This document shows positions 6,245-50,449 of a stretch of DNA of 63,930 bases, one piece after another. The DNA lies in assembly GCA_048213135.1 (NCBI GenBank), contig PS015024.1, forward strand, positions 223,208 to 287,137, in the 5' to 3' direction. The notes below the pieces were generated by a model, which did no database searches, was not told where the DNA came from, and worked only from the letters and a program-made list of their open reading frames with translations. The stretch's first letter is position 1. Every line of letters begins with the position of its first letter. Source of the DNA: Reclinomonas americana ATCC 50394. Lineage: Eukaryota. The position numbers and the translations under genes are program-made.

Positions 6245-8508
6245 AACGGGAGAGCAGCAGTGTTGCCTCTGCGGAGTCGCTGGCGGTGGAGAACAGGGAG
6301 CTGCGGGTGGAGCTGGAGGAGCTGAAAAAGGAGTTTGTCGATCTCAGGAATCAGGAGGTGGTGATTGAGAGGCTGCAGACGGAGCTGATGGAGATGCGGG
6401 CAGAGGTGAGGCAGCGGCGAAGCGCGTGTGCACTCTGCAGCTGCACTCTTTCTGTCTCTCAAGCACGCGAGAGTGCAGATTGAGCGCAAGGTGAATGAAA
6501 AGGTGAAGCAGCGTCAGACGGTGTGGCTGGAGGAGCACCGAGCGGAGCTGGAGCTGAGCCGCACGCGGTGAGGCGCTGTCATGCTGCTGCTGGTGTGCGA
6601 GTGTTTGTCTCTGACGCACGCACAGCGAAGCAGCCGCGCGATCCGAGGCCGAGACGCTCCGTGCAGAGAACGGCAAGCTGCGAGTGGAGGTCACCGAGTT
6701 GAAGACGAGTCTGTTTGCGGCCAAAGAGAAGCAGAGTGAGTGAGTGGCGAGTAGCAGAGCACGGTGAATCTTCTTCCCTCAACGTTGCCATTAGGTGGCA
6801 CGGACACTGGACTGCAGGCGCAAGTCGACTTCCTGTCGGCGGAGCTGGAGCGCCTGCAAGGCGAATTGCACACGGCTAACGAACGAGCGGTTTGTCGGCA
6901 GCCGCCTACGCTATCCCGCCGTTTCTTTCCTACGTTGTTGCTGACCTGTCGCCAGACACAGAGTGCCTCCAAGCAGGCCTCGGGGCGAGAGGACAGGTAC
7001 ATTCTGATTGCAACAGTCATCACGAGTTGTGACTCTCACCGATTCTTTCTCGCGATCGCATGCGCAGTCAGGCACGTGCAGTCGACGAGGAGTTCCGGGA
7101 ACTGGAGCAGTCGCTGCGTCGAGAGCTCGACGCAATGCGCGAGTACTCGGCGCAGCAGGAGCAGGAGCATATGGCCACAGAGAATGCACTCATTCAGCAA
7201 GTGGCTGCTCTGCGCTCCGCTGTCGCCACCAAAGTGCGTTGGACTGTGTGTGTGTGCGTGCGTGCTTCTAGGAGGGGAGGATACATCCTTTGCCAACAAT
7301 ACCACGTGCAGGAGAAGCAAGTTCTGCAACTAGAAAAACAGATCGAAGAGGCGCCATCACGAGAAGACTTTGATCGCGTGCGGTCGCAACTGCGTGTGTT
7401 GGAGGCCATGCAACTGGACGGTGATGGCGGTGATGGCGACGCGAGTGCACTGGCGCTGGAGAGCTCCACTGGTGGCGTATCAGCGGAAACAGTTGCGGGC
7501 TTGCGCATCGTGGCCCGGCGATTGCAGGACCAGGTCGTGCAACACAAGGTACGCGGTGGACAGCTTCTTCGCCGTGACCAGAGTCTCCGAAATGACTCAG
7601 CCTGCCACTCCTTCTCCCAGAATGCCCTGCAAGAGCGCACCGAAGAGCGTGACCGCCTTCAACAGCAGCTCGTCGCAGCTGAGACGCTCAGCTCTGATTT
7701 GCGCGCTGAAGTCGCCCGGCTGGAGGCGGCCAGCGAGCTGACTGCTGCACAGGCCGCCCCGTCCTTCGCCTTGTCGACTGTGATTACTGCTCCACACAAG
7801 GTATGTGTGTGCGTGTTCTTGCTTTCGATTCTGCACGCTACGTGTCACCCACGTTGCTCGACCGCAGCAGGGCGACAGCGACGCCGAAGCCATGCTCAAA
7901 ATCGTGACGGAGCAACGGGAACGGCACAAGCGCAAGTGTGCCGAACTGCAAGAGGTGACAGTCGGCCGATGCTTCCCCCGTCGCATGCGTTGTGCGTTCT
8001 ACACCTTCTCACAAATGCGCTTGCAGGAGGTCAACCACGCCAACGAACAGCTGTTCTTGACGCGACACGAAAACGAGAAGCTGACAGCCGACAATGTCAA
8101 GCTGTACGAGAAGATTCGCTTCCTGCAGAGTTACAAGGAGCGAGAGAGCGGCGGCTCTGCGTCGTCGTCTACGCTGTCCTCGGCTGCTGCGCGGCTCTCC
8201 GACCCCACAGAAACCAAGTACCGGCGTCTGTATGAGGATCAAGTGCACGTCGATCCGTACATGTCATTCAAGGCCAATGTGCGTCCTTTGCAGCCGATCG
8301 TCTCACCTTTTGTCACCTCGTAACGCCCGCCCTGCACGCACAGGAACGAGACGACAAGCTGCGGTCGCTGAATGCGGCGGAGCGCGTGACGTTGACCGTG
8401 TCGCGCATCATGCTGGGCAGTCGATACGGTCGGCTGTTTCTCCTCGTGTACTCAGTGCTGCTGCACTTGCTGGTGGTGGTCATCCTGTACAGATACGGTC
8501 GGCGGTGA
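6245..8508 (+). CDS. CASP: CASP / Coy1 golgin (CUX1 alternative-product family), 5' truncated by the gap
   Basis: N-terminal LRNQEVVIERL coiled coil. CASP_C motif MLKIVTEQRERHK...KLTADNVKLYEKIRFLQSY, then ETKYRRLYEDQ..VDPYMSF and a C-terminal anchor RLFLLVYSVLLHLLVVVILY containing the conserved Y and H. About 10 GT-AG introns. Confidence 0.9.
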
Positions 8509-8547: not shown

Positions 8548-11500
8548 TTATTCCTCGCCGGAGCGAGGCAGTTGGAGTGGTGCCAGTCTAACTGGCACAA
8601 AATGCCTCCCTTCATCCCCAAGCTCACTCGGGTCACTGGAATCGAAAAAGGCGGAGTTTGTGACGCCGGTTGGCGACATGGTTGTGGGCGACAGCGGCTC
8701 CGCGTCCAAGGCCGCTCCATCGATCTCGGCCTCGTCAAGCACACTGGCGACGATTTCGAAATTCACGCCGCGTCGACACCACTCGCGCACGTCAAGGCCG
8801 TCGACTGCCTCGTGCTCGAGGCCGGCAAACTGGCCTTCGTCAATGTTCGACGAGCCGGCAAGCAGGACCACAAACTCGTCAAAGTCTATGCACTGCAAGC
8901 AGCAAAAGGGGAGTTGGTGTCAGCAGTTGCACAGAGAGCGGAAGTGAGAGATTTTAGGCACGGGTGCACGCAACTCCGTCGCCGTCGTCGTCAAACTCTG
9001 TGGTCATGGCCACGAGGTCGGCGTACGACCGCATCTCCCCGACTTCTTCGAGAATGGCACGCAGTTCGTCCTGGTCGATCTTGCCACTGCCGTCGGCATC
9101 GTATGTGTTGAACACCTCGCGCAGCTCTTCCACCGAAGATCCTTGCAGCGATGACACGNNNNNNNNNNNNNNNNNNNNNNNNNNNNNNNNNNNNNNNNNN
9201 NNNNNNNNNNNNNNNNNNNNNNNNNNNNNNNNNNNNNNNNNNNNNNNNNNNNNNNNNNNNNNNNNNNNNNNNNNNNNNNNNNNNNNNNNNNNNNNNNNNN
9301 NNNNNNNNNNNNNNNNNNNNNNNNNNNNNNNNNNNNNNNNNNNNNNNNNNNNNNNNNNNNNNNNNNNNNNNNNNNNNNNNNNNNNNNNNNNNNNNNNNNN
9401 NNNNNNNNNNNNNNNNNNNNNNNNNNNNNNNNNNNNNNNNNNNNNNNNNNNNNNNNNNNNNNNNNATCACACTGCAGAATTCGTTCCAATCGATTTCCTA
9501 GAGAGGTGATAGTGCGTGCGGTAAGTTGCGATGGCGTCGCCACAAGAAAAGAGGAGCTGTGAGGCACTCACCAGATCGCCGTCGTCGTCACACTTGACGA
9601 TAATGTCACGAACTTCGTTTTCTGTCGGCGACTGCCCGAGACAGCGCAGGCAAATGCCCAGCTCCTCCGGCGTCAGCACGTGATTCCCGTCTGCGTCAAA
9701 CACCTCAAATGCCAACTGCATGCATTGGCCCAGTGGGGGCAGTCCGGGCAGTTGAATGGCATTCAGCTCCTCCAGTGGCACCGGATCGTTGATGAGGCGA
9801 TGGCGCACATGAGGTGGCAGCTCGCGCGAGTAGCGAATCAACGTCGGCCGCAGTCGTTGAAGCAGAGAGTAATTCTGCGGCTCTTCCTTTTCGAATTCGA
9901 GGCGTGTACGGAACGCATTGACAGCGGCCTTCATGCGGAGCCACGCCATGTCGTGGATTGCACTCTTCAGTTGCATAGAGCGTTGATGTTGCTCAAGCAG
10001 GCTGTGTGAGGGGTGGTGTGAGTGTAGGTGAACAATGCTGGTGCACAATGTTGGAGAGAACTCAACGTTAGGTACTCTGGACCGAGTGCGTTGCGCGCCA
10101 GCACCACCAGTGTCGACTGGAAGTGGGCCATGTCGAGAGCGAGGCCGACCTCCTTCATGTACTCGCGCAACTCAAAGTTGAACGTCTTTAGTCGAGCGCG
10201 TGTCACCGTAACCGGTTTGACAAGTGGATGGCCGAGCTCGGTGAGATCCTCCAGCACGACTTGCAGCTGGCGCCAGTGCATGCGATTGCGACCGCCGCTG
10301 ATTTCCTGCCACGCGTCTTGGAATCTGCACGATGGCGGTGAGTGCATGCTGCNNNNNNNNNNNNNNNNNNNNNNNNNNNNNNNNNNNNNNNNNNNNNNNN
10401 NNNNNNNNNNNNNNNNNNNNNNNNNNNNNNNNNNNNNNNNNNNNNNNGATTGCTGCTCATATGCAACGCTGCGCAACTTTTGCATATCGTCCTTCGAGAT
10501 TACAAAGGTGGCCTTGCGGTACACGTGCCCGAACTCGTCCAGAATAATCGCCACCACCAGGTTGAGGAACACAAAGGCCAGGAAGGCGTACACAAACACG
10601 AAAAATATGTACACCAGAGCCGGTTGGCCGCAGTAGGGCTCCGCACAAAACGGTTTTTGCACCGCAAGGTCGCGCATGACGCACTGCCAGTTGTCGGCTG
10701 AGAAGGGAGGTACGAGTCACAAGGGCGGTAAAAGAAGTGCACAGCGGTTATAGACACAAAAGACGAACCTGTTGTCACCCGCATGACCGTCAAGAAGGCG
10801 GGCACGAAGGAGCGGAAGTTGGCCTGTCGGTTGAGGCAGCTGCCGAAGCGTACGGTGCCGAACTGTTGCACGCCGAGTGTCGCGAAAATCACCACAAAGA
10901 TGAAGAAGACAAATGTGGTGTTGATCAGTCGCGGCAGCGCGGAACTGTACGACAGTTCGAGGGTTAGACGCAGATATAACACGGCGTTCTCGTCGAGCAG
11001 TCAGGGAGCACGCAACATCAAGGTCTCGAAGATGAGCCGCGTCGGCCGATAAATGTGCACGAGACGCAGAATTCGCAAGATGCGCGAAATGTCTTGAATG
11101 GCGTACCCCACCGACGCCACCTCAGACACACTGCTGAATGTCATGAACCAGCCGAGCCAGGAGCCGACAATGATGGAAAAGTCAAACACATGCCATCCCG
11201 ATTGCATGAAATATCCGCTGTGTGCAGATAGGCAGACGCATCCTGTCAGTCTCGCGCAGCAACTCTAAAGCACGCACAAATTCAATAAGAAAACGCACCC
11301 CGGTAGATAGGCTGTCATGCGAATCACGGCTTCGACAGTGAACACGGCGAGGAACATGAAGTTTCCGATGTTGATGGCATCCGAGACAGCCTGCGACTGA
11401 CCAAAGTGGCGCACTGCCAACAGGGCGGTGTTGCCGACCACACAAAAGAGGATGGCACTGCATCGCGCACAATATTATCGAATACTGTCTTTCTTGTGAA

Positions 11501-14500
11501 GAGGCAAGAAGAGCAACAAGAGAGACGCAACGGCTCAAACCACTTGCTTTCGCAGCAAGCCAATGCCAGTTTACGGACGCGGCTGCGCGCTTCGCGTGCC
11601 GTTGGTGGCAAGGCCTGGAGCAGAATGCCACGTCGAATGTCGCGCCACGCACGCTGCGTATCGGTGAGATACGCAGTGCCCACTTGCATTTGCATGTTCT
11701 GGACCACGATGGCGATGAAGATGTTGACCAGGAAAAAGTTGGCGGTGAGCACGAAAGCCACAAAGAACACCGAGTAGTAGGGGGCGCTGTTGGTGACCGG
11801 TGCCTGGCCTTGGCCTGTCATGCTGGTCGTGGCCCACAAGACCGGTGTCCAGTTGCTGAGAGTGGATGACTCGAACAGAACCAGCAGCGAATTGGCGGTG
11901 TTGTCGAAATTGTAGTATGGTGTTTTCCACGTGCGCGGAGCCACCACTCCTAGCGAGTTGGTGTAGTAGCCGAAACAACTGGTCTGATTGAGTGCACTAT
12001 CGCTGCATCGGTACAGACCGCCAGCGAACAAGTTGACGCCAAACAGGGCAAACAGGAGGTAGATGAACAAGCCGACAATGGCGACGTTGAGTAGCTGACT
12101 CGAGGCCTTGCCGAGAGATTCGAGCACAACTTGTGCGCCTGGGAGGAGAGAGACAATTGATGGGAAGGGAGTGACGGCGACGTGATGCAGAGAGCAAAAC
12201 GCACCTCGATTCCGTTTGAAGAGACGGAGTACTTTCAAGCAGCGAAGCGCGTCGAAACCGGCAATGTGCAGCAATTCACCGTACAGTTCGATGAGCAGCA
12301 GCAGATCCAGCCAGTTCCACTTGCTACGCAGATAGCCGTCGGGGCTGAAGAGGACGCCGTGTGCCACTGTCTTCAGCACAAAGTCCAACGAGAACACTAC
12401 CGCCAGCACGCAGTTGGTGATGTTGAGTGCACGCAACACATCCGACGAGTTGTCGTCATCAGCGCGATTCAGAATCAGGAATGCCAGCGTCACCAATGTG
12501 GCCAGCAACACTGTCCAGTTCCACACCGTGGATTCCACCCACACATGAGCGATTTTGCGGACGGTGTTGTTGGGCCCGAGCCAGCCGAACGAATAATCGG
12601 GGAATTGGTTGTCTGCAAGCAAGTGCTGTGCGTGAGCCATCACCCGATACACAGCTATCTTCCATAGCAGTGACGCAACTCAAGATCGACTTGTACCGAT
12701 CAGTCTCGCCCAGACCATTCAGCCTCGTCACCTTGGTCATGCTGCAGTGATCGATGATCAGACAACATTTCTGGCATGGCGGTGCACACGACAGTAAGGG
12801 CGGTTCCTCACCTGCTCATCTTGTCGTCCTTCTTAGGCGCTTTTTCCGGATCCACATCGTCAACTGCTTCCTCTTCTGCCTGCTGAACGACGAAGCCGCA
12901 GCCAATCAACAGACTGCGACCGCACGTCCGCTTCGTCGGTTGCTTCATCTTGCGAGCGCGAACAGTAGTCTTTTCCCATCGTGAGGCATCGTAGTACATC
13001 TTGCAGCGGCGCTCGTACTCCTCTGGGGTCTGTCCCAGTGGTCCGCTGTCTTCCGAACCTATCAGCAAGCCACAGTGCTTGTGAGTTGTCTTCTCTTACA
13101 GAACACAGGCTGACTTTGCAACATGTATCCGCAACTCGACGAAGAGGAATAACCGTCATCGTCGTCCTCTGCCTCGCCCTTCTCGGACGGAATCGCAGCC
13201 GATTGAACAGATGCCGCCGACACCAGAAGCGTCGGTTTGTTGGCTGCCGACACGAACAAACTGTCGGTTCGTGACTTGCCAAACTGCGCAATGTTGCTCG
13301 TGCTGTCGGCCATGCTTCCGACAGCCGGCAGCACCTTGCCACGTGTGCTCTGCTTGGACGAAGGTCGTGAGCTCTGCTTCGATGACGGCCGTCCACTCCT
13401 CCGCGCCGTGTGCTCCTCTCGCGGCTGGCAAAACATGATGCGGAACAGTCGTCGTAGCGCCATGTAGAGGCGGAACAGGGTGGTGATAGGCAACTGTGCA
13501 ATGTTCACACGCACACCCAAATCAGTCAACGTGGATCACCAAAGAGGAGTACGGGGGGGAATGCGAAACCTTTCTCTTGCCGCTTGCCTCGACATCCATC
13601 ACCTCCTGCTGCTGCATGCGCTGCTTGGTGTCTTGGTCGACATCGAATGCCTCGACGATAATGGCCAAGAACAGGTTAATGACGATGACTGGTGAGAGAA
13701 AGCACAAAGTAGTGTGAGCCTGCTTGTGGATTCCACCCTTCCAAAATCATCACAGCATACGCAACACTTGGCAAAGAGGATGTAGCACACAAAGTAGAGA
13801 ACGGTCGACAATAGGCGTTCGCTCATCAATGGGTAAATGAGATATGGCCAGCCGTCCGCCGACATTAGCTGTAACGGAAGAGTCAACATGTGTGTGTGTG
13901 AGAGAGAGATGACGGGTGACCATAGGCTACTCGTCAAGACTGAAACACAGACCTCGAATGCAACAATCAAGGCCTCCCAAAAGGTAGTAAACTGCCCGTA
14001 CGATGTCGGAATGACCAAGTCGCCGAACAACTGCATGCCAATGATGCCGAACACGATCAACACAAAGGCGATGAAGATGAACACGTTGAGGATGCCTTCG
14101 ATCGAGTTACTGAGCTTGCTCTGTTGAGTGACGCAACACAGAACAGTGCAGGTGTAAGCAAGACAGATAAACAGTATGCGTCTGAGTTTGTATGACACGC
14201 CACGCACAATCAGTTCTCGTGGTCCCTTGAGACGCCGGAACAGTTTGAACAGGCGGAGCAAACGGAACGAGCGCAGCAGACTGAGATTCGACGAGGCCAG
14301 TACGACGCTGATTACCGAAGCAACCACCACCACGAAATCAAACTGGAATCGCCCTGGATGCCACACATCTAGCAGTTAGTCGCACTGACATTATGAAGGA
14401 AAGGAACGAGCACGAATGCCGCACCCCAGCGGAAGTACTCGAGCGGGTTGCCGAGTGCGCACATGATGAGAACCATCTCCAGCGCAAACACGCAGGTGAA

Positions 14501-17500
14501 TGCGATTTCCGAAATGTCTGCGTCACGGACGCAGAGCAGTTAAGTATCGCGCCCAGCGAGAAGCACTCACAAGCGCAAACGCACTGAGAAGTTCCATGAG
14601 TGCGTTGTCGGCCGGATATCTGTAGAGCACCATGAACGCCGTGTTGGCCACTGTGGGAAGAGAGAGAGGGAGTGGTCAGATGCAGTTGTGCGCGAATTAG
14701 GTAGATGAGCTGCCCACGTACCGATGAACAAGCTGGTGACAATCTCAAACGACGGCGACAGAATCCAGCGCTGAAGTCTGTGAACCCATTTGTAGCTGCC
14801 AATCAGGCGCATGCGGCTGAGTGGAGTCACTTCGTCTTCCACGTCGATCACAACAACGGTAGAGATGTCCTCGGTACTCTTGGCGCGTCCAAACGCCACT
14901 GAGTTTCCCACACTCGGTCGTGCTCCTGCCGGCCACATTTCTCCCACAGAAGTGCTCGAGTACTGCACAAACAAATGAGCGACATGCTGGTGGTGGCAGG
15001 AGAAGAAGCAGGAGTACATCCACGAACCGCGCCGCCAGTCATGATGCGTCGGCGAGCGACCTCGGCCAGTTCCTGTAAGCAACGAATACAGTGAGTCGCT
15101 TAAAATGCATCATTGTCGGAAACACAGTCGCTGTTAACCTCTGAAGTAATCTGCAGAAACGAAACGCAATGCAATATAATGAGATGCGCTAGGAAAAATG
15201 ACAAGAGCAGATCTCAGACGAAAAGAACTCACTCCTCGGGCTCGCACAAGATCCTCCTCCCGATCAGGAAGCTGAAACGACGCACGGAAGAAATGAGTTG
15301 AACAGGCTGTGAAGGTAGTGAAAAAGACGAGAGGGATTCTGCTACGCACCGACTCCACCGACAACTGGTTCTGACTCGGGACAATCTGCAGAGGCTGCAA
15401 CACATGTGAGACAACCAGAGACAACATTGGAGGAGTGACGTTTTTTTGCTTCACATACCTGCACACTGGCGGCGTCATCCCTGCTTGAGAATCCCTCACT
15501 CACCTGCGACCTGCGTCGCACAACGCGCACTGTCGCCTGCTGCACAGAGCCCGATCTAGCCGACTCTGCATGACCCAGAGAGTAACATGAGAGACTGACG
15601 CGCTCGCAAGATGCCCTCTTTTTCACACACGTACCCAGCGGATTGGGCGACAGGCGGTCCGTGAGTAGTGGCGATTGACGACCTTGCAGTCGCGGAGAAA
15701 TGCCGCCGCGCAGGGTGACCGGATTCGGCGCCTCGATAGCTTCTGCGTCGAGGAGCGACGGCACACTGCGTTCCGTCATCAAGTCCGGCGTGACTGCACG
15801 AACACGGTTTCCGACAGATTGTGCGTGCCGCGCGGACAGCAATGTCGACGGCCGCCGTGCTGATGCCAGAAGACTAGCTTCGGTGAGAGTCGCTCCAGGC
15901 AGATTCGACTCCGCCACTCTCTCGACCGCCTGCGTCGGCGGGGGCGCCCATTGGTCGGTAACAGGAATGCGGGTGAAATCGTATGAGCTTCGCACGTCCA
16001 CGTCAGCCACCGATGCCCGTCGAATGCCGGCAAGCGATCCACGCCGTACGACTACAAAGTCGGGTCGTGGTGACGTCTGCGCATCGTTGATGTCGTGTCC
16101 TTCCAGGCGCACGCGGAAGCCGATGCGGCTGTCGCGTCGACTCATATTTCGCTGGGAGAACTTGGCACTGATGGCAGCCACTGACGACCTTCGTCGTGGC
16201 GCGGATGCACTTCCCGGAGCTGCGCTATCCAGTCGTCGTTTTGAGCTGTTGTATGGTGCTCATTTTTTCAGTGACCATTTTCTGCAGAGACCGCGCACAC
16301 AACAGAGATAGATAAACAAACCTCTGTTGTGACACAAAGCCGGATTCGCCACGGGCACGAATGCGTGCAAACGTCTCACTGATCACGGCGACGAAGAGAT
16401 TGACCGCGATGCTGCATTGGTGTCGCAGGCAGGTGAGACAAGGAACGCGACACGTTGTGACGGTCACCGCACGCAACAAGCAAAGCAGCACCACAAGAAT
16501 CATGTTGTACAAGAGGCTGTAGGAGAATGTGGCGTCCATCTACATGCAAGATAGTGTTAGAGCGTTCGTGTGACGCATGCCGGTGGCGTTTCAAGCGCGC
16601 GTGCAGACCTCGGCATACATAAAGTCGGTCCATCCGATTAGAGTCAGTGTGTGTAACACCGCCATCATGGCGCTTCCCATGTTGTCAAAGTGCGCAAAGT
16701 ATGGAGGATTCCCGTAATCCTGTGCATGTACACACGGAGGTGAGTGAGGGCAAGTCGCGCGCATACATATTTCGTAAGCCGTCAACAAGACGTACCGCCA
16801 TGCACTGCTGCTGACCGGGACATTGAAAGCCGGTGTGCCTTGTGGTGGAACATACGGCGGCTGGGATGGATACGAGCGTGCTGTCGTTCCCCAGTGCACA
16901 CCGACCACGAAAACTGCCGCTGAACATCACCAGGCCAATAACTGCAAAGAGCGTCACCGTGACCAGCAGGAATAGGGAGACGTTGATCAGCAGCGACAGT
17001 GACTCGCGCAGGCTCTCCAGGATGGCACGCATGCCCTTCAGCATCTTGATAGCGCGCAGCGGTCGAATGGCACGCAGCGCACGAACGGCCGACAGTGAGA
17101 CGCTCACTTCGGCGGTCATGGCAATCCACGAAGTGACCAGAATGATAAAGTCCAAGCGGTGCCACGGATTCCGCAGATACGAGTGTTTGTGCAGCACTGC
17201 TCCGAGTGCCACTATTTTCAAGCCCACCTCCGCCGTGAAGAAGACCAACGTGTAAAAGTCAATCTGGTACAGCACGTGCTGAAAGCCCTTGGCCGATGAC
17301 ATGGTCAAACGCGGGTCCTCGGCCGCCAGCGTCACCACACTGAGAATCACCACGGTGTAGACGATAAAGTCGCACACTGGATGGAAGAGTACAGCAGCGA
17401 GCCACTTGCGAAACACGTTGTCGGCCGACAGCAGCCACAATGAGCGTGAATGGAGCTCATATTTTGGCTCTGGTGCCACGGGTGCTGCTGCTGCTGCTGC

Positions 17501-17887
17501 TGCTCCTCCCGTGTCGTCCGTCGATATGTTGGAACTGCTGGTGCGACGTGCGGGCGAAGCGCATCGTGAGGCGTTGCGCGTGGCGGTGGCCTGCGGGGTT
17601 CACAGAGTATGCGTTGGCAATCAGTGTGGGGTGAGTTTTGGGACACGTGCACTCACCGGACTCTTCAGCTCATCCTCTGTGAAGAACTGCACCGACTTGC
17701 GCTGCACTATCGGCGCAAGCGACAGATGTTGCCTCGGCGTGGTGCCGAGGCCGCCACTGCTCTCACTTGTCAGTCCATCACGCACATGTGCAAAAAAGAG
17801 GTGTGTGTGTGTGTGTGACGTCGACACACGCACGCGCGCAACTCTGTCTCTCTGTTCATGGGAGGGCGTGGCGGAGAACGGCGACAC
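8548..17887 (-). CDS. Four-domain voltage-gated-like cation channel (NALCN/Cch1-like) with a C-terminal calmodulin-like domain; start codon uncertain
   Basis: Four 6TM repeats with S4 segments RALRAIRPLRAIK, RSFRLLRLFKLFRR, RCLKVLRLFKR and RILRILRLVH. Pore loops TLIGW, SADGW, TLSNW and TADNW. III-IV linker GTAYLTDTQRAW and DIV FGTVRFGSCLNRQANF...VQKPFC resemble NALCN/Cch1. Four EF-hands downstream. Confidence 0.9.

Positions 17888-39450: not shown

Positions 39451-50449
<10,999 letters not shown>

Follow-up and report, generated by a model that had tools for sequence, protein, structure and literature searches.

A Cav-like four-domain channel gene with a predicted C-terminal calmodulin-like domain in Reclinomonas americana

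The regulation of Cav and Nav channels by calmodulin is a central and still debated subject, in particular with respect to the placement of the lobes, the number of calmodulins per channel and the apo versus Ca2+-bound states. Calcium-dependent protein kinases (CDPKs), for their part, consist of an effector, a target helix and a tethered calmodulin-like domain with four EF-hands. Here we describe a locus on a 63,930-nucleotide stretch of DNA from Reclinomonas americana ATCC 50394 (assembly GCA_048213135.1, contig PS015024.1, positions 223,208 to 287,137 of the forward strand), hereafter the window (63.9 kilobases), in which a four-domain Cav-like channel gene is followed by exons for a calmodulin-derived domain that, judging from the gene structure, is probably a covalent part of the channel protein. 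The gene is read on the minus strand and all coordinates are window positions.

Several described systems bear comparison with this locus. Like animal Cav1/Cav2 and Nav channels, the predicted protein has four domains, S4 segments rich in arginine and lysine (R/K), a proximal C-terminal domain of channel type, a helix where the IQ motif sits and a two-lobed calmodulin-type sensor at the tail; however, the sensor would lie in the same reading frame here, whereas it is a separate, free calmodulin there. It further differs from the animal Cav channels in its degenerate IQ motif, in pore positions that read I/D/S/D rather than EEEE, and in that Pfam GPHH and Ca_chan_IQ go undetected. NALCN and Cch1 share the four-domain architecture. 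The overall design is CDPK-like, but the effector is an ion channel instead of a kinase and the protein is not a member of the CDPK family. A comparable fusion has been made in the laboratory: in the engineered Cav1.2 described in the excerpted text of PMC5390892, a glycine linker ties calmodulin to the shortened C-terminus, so that each channel has one sensor. The arrangement predicted here resembles such fusions in having a calmodulin-type domain covalently placed on the tail behind the IQ region, but it belongs to a natural, predicted gene and is diverged (42-49% identity over the aligned exons), whereas the engineered constructs carry genuine calmodulin. Other channels also have a Ca2+ sensor within their own polypeptide. 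EhEUKCATB1 bears a C-terminal EF-hand pair and needs Ca2+ (10.1101/2020.04.29.068528, as excerpted); unlike the four-domain channel here, it is a single-domain channel with one such pair. TPC1 of plants and diatoms carries a pair of EF-hands that lies between the two domains of the channel (PMC11085791, as excerpted), and in TPC1, as in four protist channels from our survey (P0185, P0266, P0217 and P0220), the EF-hands lie in internal linkers and not past the C-terminal domain. None of these channels combines a complete two-lobed, calmodulin-order domain with an IQ-like helix ahead of it.

A calmodulin-like four-EF-hand domain

Four EF-hand loops can be read directly on the minus strand. The EF1 loop DADGNHVLTPEE (9662..9697) and the EF3 loop DADGSGKIDQDE (9065..9100) also satisfy a strict EF-loop pattern of PROSITE type, these being its only two matches in a six-frame translation of the window; in 50 shuffles the pattern averaged 0.02 matches, with never more than 1. 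The EF2 and EF4 loops are divided by introns. EF2 reads DDDGDL at 9589-9572 and, after intron 2 (9498..9571; 74 nucleotides (nt), GTGAGT..TAG), EIDWNE at 9497-9480, while EF4 reads DDDGDG at 8992-8975 and, after intron 3 (8893..8974; 82 nt, GTTGCG..TGCAG), CIDFDE at 8892-8875; splicing of the two introns restores exact 12-residue loops. The exon 9572..10001 is a single open frame of 143 codons; it encodes an IQ-like helix and, past a linker of about 55 residues, EF1 together with the first half of EF2. It is followed by a short exon piece beginning EIDWNEFCSV (9466..9497), which holds the second half of EF2 and runs into an assembly gap of 307 N within the domain (9159..9465). Beyond the gap, an exon at 8975..9158, recognised by Pfam and by its calmodulin alignment, encodes EF3 and the first half of EF4, and the last exon (8548..8892) encodes the second half of EF4 and an acidic tail of about 95 residues up to the stop TAA at 8550-8548. 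The acidic tail has no Pfam match and belongs to no known family, and the frame of the last exon has the best codon score of the alternatives, if only weakly so.

Pfam detects EF-hand_7 on the exon 10000-9572 (E-value 6.4e-07), and both EF-hand_6 (1.3e-10) and EF-hand_7 (9.4e-09) on the exon 9157-8975. The best PDB matches of both EF exons are calmodulin (E 1.8e-16 and 5.4e-15), and the two lobes align in calmodulin order: residues 96-142 of the N exon align with calmodulin 14-60 (23/47 identical), the N exon scoring 39.5 bits there vs 22.5 bits on the C-lobe of calmodulin, and residues 7-61 of the C exon align with calmodulin 80-134 (23/55 identical). In calmodulin-equivalent numbering, the sequence breaks off at residue 71 before the 307-N gap and is taken up again at 74 behind it; thus, only about two residues are missing, which argues against a mis-join and points to a gap made up of a few bases or of an intron. 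Acidic or polar ligands occupy positions 1, 3, 5, 9 and 12 in all four loops. Position 6 is His in EF1 and Leu in EF2, whereas EF3 and EF4 are fully canonical, and none of the tail exons contains a stop or a frameshift. These matches identify the four motifs as EF-hands of calmodulin ancestry, ordered in two lobes. The product is not a true calmodulin, which would be free-standing, of about 150 residues and near-identical in sequence; here the exon encodes a further 95 residues upstream of the domain. EF2 and EF4 are interrupted by introns at an identical point, in phase 0 after loop residue 6, and this coincidence fits either an intron older than the lobe duplication or inheritance from a donor calmodulin gene.

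An earlier note on this DNA, made from the letters alone, had already described the four loops, their calmodulin-like character, the lack of Gly6 in the N-lobe loops alongside canonical C-lobe loops, and gaps at 10353-10447 and 9159-9465; all of this agrees with our reading, the gaps being runs of N. The introns it listed, 10066-10002 and 8974-8893, have GT-AG ends and keep the frame, but its list lacked a third one, 9571-9498, which EF2 requires and whose junction the note had used.

The Cav-like channel body and its C-terminal domain

The channel body occupies 10453..17599 on the minus strand, where tblastn, a draft spliced model and Pfam Ion_trans delineate domains I-IV, interrupted by numerous short introns; this draft model is uncurated at its exact 5' end and at several internal splice sites. 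Searches by tblastn with three Cav homologues recover four colinear repeat blocks (17557-16615, 14120-13908, 12637-11579 and 11453-10501), and Ion_trans is detected on the domain IV (DIV) piece 10716-10453 with an E-value of 1.5e-07. Against solved structures, the open reading frame (ORF) of domain III (451 residues) is closest to Cav1 (E 4e-57), followed by Cav3 and Cav2 (~1e-50) and Nav (~1e-35), with NALCN as the weakest four-domain match (2.7e-17). Its identity to animal L-type/Cav1 channels is 27-30%. A search of a protein collection with domain III gave 4934 matches, the best 150 of which all show at most 33% identity; the top seven representatives include a diplonemid, Diphylleia and a jakobid. 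In the draft spliced model the S4 segments of all four domains are R/K-rich, with 4-6 such residues each, mostly at every third position. By these comparisons, the channel is a deeply diverged Cav-like voltage-gated channel.

The label NALCN/Cch1-like, under which the channel was previously described, is not supported. A NALCN-like identity is ruled out by the domain III E-values for NALCN and Cav1 together with the R/K-rich S4 segments. The Cch1-like part of the label is set apart by description, not by direct sequence comparison: the S4 segments of both NALCN and Cch1 are described as R/K-poor in the excerpted text of PMC5824947.

At the positions where calcium channels have an EEEE or EEDD filter, the pore reads I/D/S/D. 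In a BLASTP alignment with a Cav1.2 homologue, the I, S and D stand opposite the glutamates of domains I, III and IV, while the D of domain II was assigned by eye after removal of an in-frame intron; the pore loops lie approximately at 16650-16630, 13870-13850, 11900-11880 and 10770-10690 of the minus strand. A hydrophobic residue at the domain I filter position is unusual, and I/D/S/D leaves the ion selectivity open. Two introns of the channel body, 13952-13869 and 16477-16412, have lengths that are multiples of 3 and contain no stop codon; ORF-based gene calls would read through them and put junk into pore and S6 segments.

The S6 segment of domain IV (DIV-S6) is separated from the proximal C-terminal domain by an assembly gap of 95 N (10353..10447). 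The exon that follows (10067..10350) is predicted to form four helices and is recognised by a profile that we made from the post-S6 regions of 143 homologues (E 9.4e-07, 23.7 bits), with 0/400 shuffles scoring above 4.7 bits. This match indicates that the channel's own C-terminal domain reaches 10067, and it identifies the exon as the proximal EF-hand-like domain that channels of this type have after DIV-S6. Pfam GPHH is not detected in the tail at E<=0.1, part of the GPHH region falling inside the 95-N gap. A single-sequence AlphaFold2 model of the exon has four helices at low confidence (predicted local distance difference test (pLDDT) 60), such models being usable for helix counts only. In the PDB, Foldseek with this model found nothing at E<=0.001 (the best match, at E 1.1, is an unrelated protein), and phmmer with the exon found nothing relevant.

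The junction, the candidate target helix and rival explanations

The C-terminal-domain exon is joined to the EF exon by intron 1, a predicted intron of 65 nt (GTTGAG..CACAG, 10002..10066). Its excision preserves the frame; left unspliced, the channel frame ends at a stop at 9969-9967. A codon-score splice-path finder independently chose all three tail introns, although in-frame introns escape it and it predicts one spurious intron of 45 nt (8636-8592), exon-like in composition; a minimal-intron path finder was discarded for wrong splice choices in conserved segments. The tail introns measure 65, 74 and 82 nt vs 66-84 nt for six homology-anchored introns of the same gene, which are fixed by conserved pore or S6 segments. 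The two sets have donor types in common (GTTGCG occurs three times, the donor of intron 3 being identical to that of two anchored introns) and YAG acceptors. On a dinucleotide intron-vs-exon score, introns 1, 2 and 3 reach 0.144, 0.071 and 0.055, whereas the highest value in 84 held-out exon windows is 0.051; the score itself is weak (leave-one-out range for the anchored introns -0.12 to 0.075). By this measure no part of the tail looks less like an exon than the segment 10066-10002. Codon scores speak, albeit modestly, for the proposed frame of each tail exon. The covalent fusion proposed in the earlier note thus stands as a gene structure whose junction depends on the predicted 65-nt intron. 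On balance, we favour a single minus-strand gene that would encode a Cav-like channel, its C-terminal domain, an IQ-like helix, a linker, a calmodulin-derived domain of four EF-hands and an acidic tail.

The helix AWLRMKAAVNAFRTR (9902..9946), which shares one uninterrupted exon with EF1 and the first half of EF2, is a candidate in-cis target for this domain. Its motif is a degenerate IQ, with M-K in place of I-Q (MK..N..R vs IQ..R..R in the alignment). In pairwise alignments, an ungapped match to the tail of the homologue P0140 (E 1.8e-04 in a set of 270 proteins) extends from the final helix of the C-terminal domain through AWLRMKAAVNAFRTRLEF, and the same stretch matches, more weakly, residues 1484-1501 of P0201, which Pfam calls IQ; by these alignments the helix sits at the position of the IQ motif in its relatives. 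No Pfam IQ or Ca_chan_IQ match is found in the tail. By its position, this helix is a plausible candidate for the target. A further stretch in the linker, basic and amphipathic and with a low-confidence helix prediction, may serve as an alternative target, and YSLLQRLRPTLIRYSRE is a candidate target peptide beside AWLRMKAAVNAFRTR. The single-sequence AlphaFold2 model of the EF exon has a pLDDT of 52, and a complex prediction with the IQ-like helix, the split C-lobe and two Ca ions (score 0.05, mark 0.34) weighs neither way.

Several observations weigh against this single-gene reading. The fusion is weakest at intron 1, for which there is no confirming conserved junction; the splice that joins the channel to the EF exon is a prediction from gene structure, and two assembly gaps lie inside the tail. 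The target helix previously proposed upstream of the EF-hands keeps its position at the relatives' IQ motif, but its similarity does not rise above shuffled controls: the downstream part of the stretch, taken by itself within the EF exon, scores 9.1 bits at best, a value reached by 1/100 shuffles, and a targeted profile, built from the 20/253 tails kept by a motif filter, gives -0.6 bits, which 285/300 shuffles equal or better. The EF1 and EF2 loops have no Gly6. Among proteins of 252-2000 or 78-251 residues we found no orthologue with the EF exon, where the full protein probably exceeds 2000 residues and full-length relatives may thus lie beyond the 252-2000 range. Finally, the nearest look-alikes that a language model gives for the EF exon are small proteins of 168-203 residues that stand free and combine IQ with EF-hands (score 0.85, which is below the reliable level and serves as a lead only).

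Such look-alikes mean that a protein of this kind could exist as a separate gene, and bring us to the explanation by two genes, which we regard as unlikely: the channel would end at 9969-9967 with intron 1 unspliced, and a separate small IQ plus calmodulin-like protein, which may act in trans, would be encoded behind it. This would accommodate the three in-frame ATGs at the start of the EF exon (9976-9974, 9949-9947 and 9934-9932), the frame of that exon being open upstream to 10171, and the absence of significant homology between the helix and channel tails; the IQ motif is, moreover, reported as lost in many protist four-domain channels in the excerpted text of PMC5824947. However, the first of these ATGs precedes the stop of the unspliced channel, so about 10 nt at the coding end of the channel would also belong to a second gene on that strand, whose promoter would have to lie inside the coding exons of the first. 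In addition, 10066-10002 has the composition, length and ends of the introns of the same gene, and the spliced path is the one preferred by the codon-score gene finder.

The gaps bring in a different explanation, an assembly artefact or a decayed gene, in which a mis-join at an N run would have brought in EF3-EF4 or the whole tail from elsewhere, or the exons would be the remnant of a pseudogene. We judge this very improbable: the N runs 10447-10353 and 9465-9159 do break the tail, and the stated 307 N are not divisible by 3, but both sides of that gap lie on the same strand and continue one calmodulin alignment, making a chance mis-join unlikely, while the exon past the 95-N gap matches channel C-terminal domains. 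Decay is further countered by exons without stop or frameshift, by intact loop ligands and by codon scores in favour of the frame. Finally, the fusion could be real and the domain a structural subunit like a permanently bound light chain, stabilising or trafficking the tail with little Ca2+ dependence. The His and Leu at position 6 of the N-lobe loops, a filter with which the channel may or may not pass Ca2+ at all, and the basal activity supported by tail-linked calmodulin in engineered Cav1.2 (PMC5390892, as excerpted) would all suit such a role, which we nonetheless hold to be improbable given the ligands kept at positions 1, 3, 5, 9 and 12 of every loop and the canonical EF3 and EF4.

Occurrence among relatives, surroundings of the gene and proposed regulation

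The earlier note had asked whether this architecture is already common among homologues. We surveyed 270 of them, comprising 120 animal Cav channels and 150 representatives (the best 150 of the 4934 matches). With both window lobes as phmmer queries, an EF pair after the C-terminal domain was found in 0/270 homologues; two of the 270 match at all, both in the I-II linker. At least one strict EF-loop match occurs in 8/150 representatives (best 150 of 4934), none of them in the distal tail, and Pfam finds only the usual GPHH in five proteins with weak C-terminal matches. Pfam does identify EF-hand pairs in internal linkers in 4/150 representatives (again the best 150 of 4934), namely P0185 from Picozoa (residues 330-650), P0266 from Diplonema (406-470), P0217 (548-619), which also has a PDZ domain, and P0220 (704-758). 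These linker pairs look like independent acquisitions at different places. EF-hands within the polypeptide are thus a recurrent trait of protist four-domain channels, but neither at this position nor as a full domain in calmodulin order. A scan of metagenome contigs with the EF exon gave 288 pattern matches, 0 of which were confirmed. In the full-text literature we found no four-domain channel with a C-terminal calmodulin-like domain, InterPro architectures and supplementary tables being outside this search. A survey of 277 sequences mentions pre-IQ as well as IQ motifs and, in its excerpted text, never EF-hands (PMC5824947), and the text of a survey of 623 organisms has no occurrence of EF-hand or calmodulin.

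Downstream of the channel lies a convergent CASP gene, coding for a Golgi protein, at 7784..8508 of the plus strand (Pfam CASP_C, 1.2e-19). Its ORF ends at 8508, 40 nt past the channel stop; consequently there is no further minus-strand gene downstream and the locus is bounded. The 3' untranslated regions of the two genes must overlap, and both the 40-nt spacing of the stops and the abundance of introns of 60-85 nt point to a very compact genome. The assembly is a draft with 17 runs of N in the window, many of exactly 20 N, and long CA/TG and other simple repeats occur at 44400-45400 and elsewhere in the window.

With the channel and the EF-hand exons read as one gene, the tethered calmodulin-like domain would stand in for free calmodulin. 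In the resting state, the IQ-like helix or the basic helix next to it would be occupied by one lobe, probably the canonical C-lobe. Upon Ca2+ entry, or a rise of Ca2+ nearby, the loops would bind Ca2+, the C-lobe loading at lower Ca2+ than the N-lobe with its loops devoid of Gly6; the loaded domain would then rearrange on the tail and change gating, by inactivation or by facilitation. This would apply to a channel the logic of the CDPKs, with a target helix and a tethered calmodulin-like domain; Ca2+ binding, binding in cis and the effect on gating are what we infer from the predicted protein. More tentatively, and with somewhat less than even confidence, we propose that a Cav-type channel with an I/D/S/D pore captured a calmodulin gene behind a degenerate IQ helix, with one sensor in cis and no free calmodulin needed.

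The claim is limited to one draft genome. If it is true, this protein would be the channel counterpart of the CDPKs and a natural version of the laboratory calmodulin-channel fusions used for counting calmodulins per channel. Carrying its sensor in cis at a fixed 1:1 ratio, it would offer a ready-made system for structure and electrophysiology, and evolution would have reached the CDPK solution for a channel.

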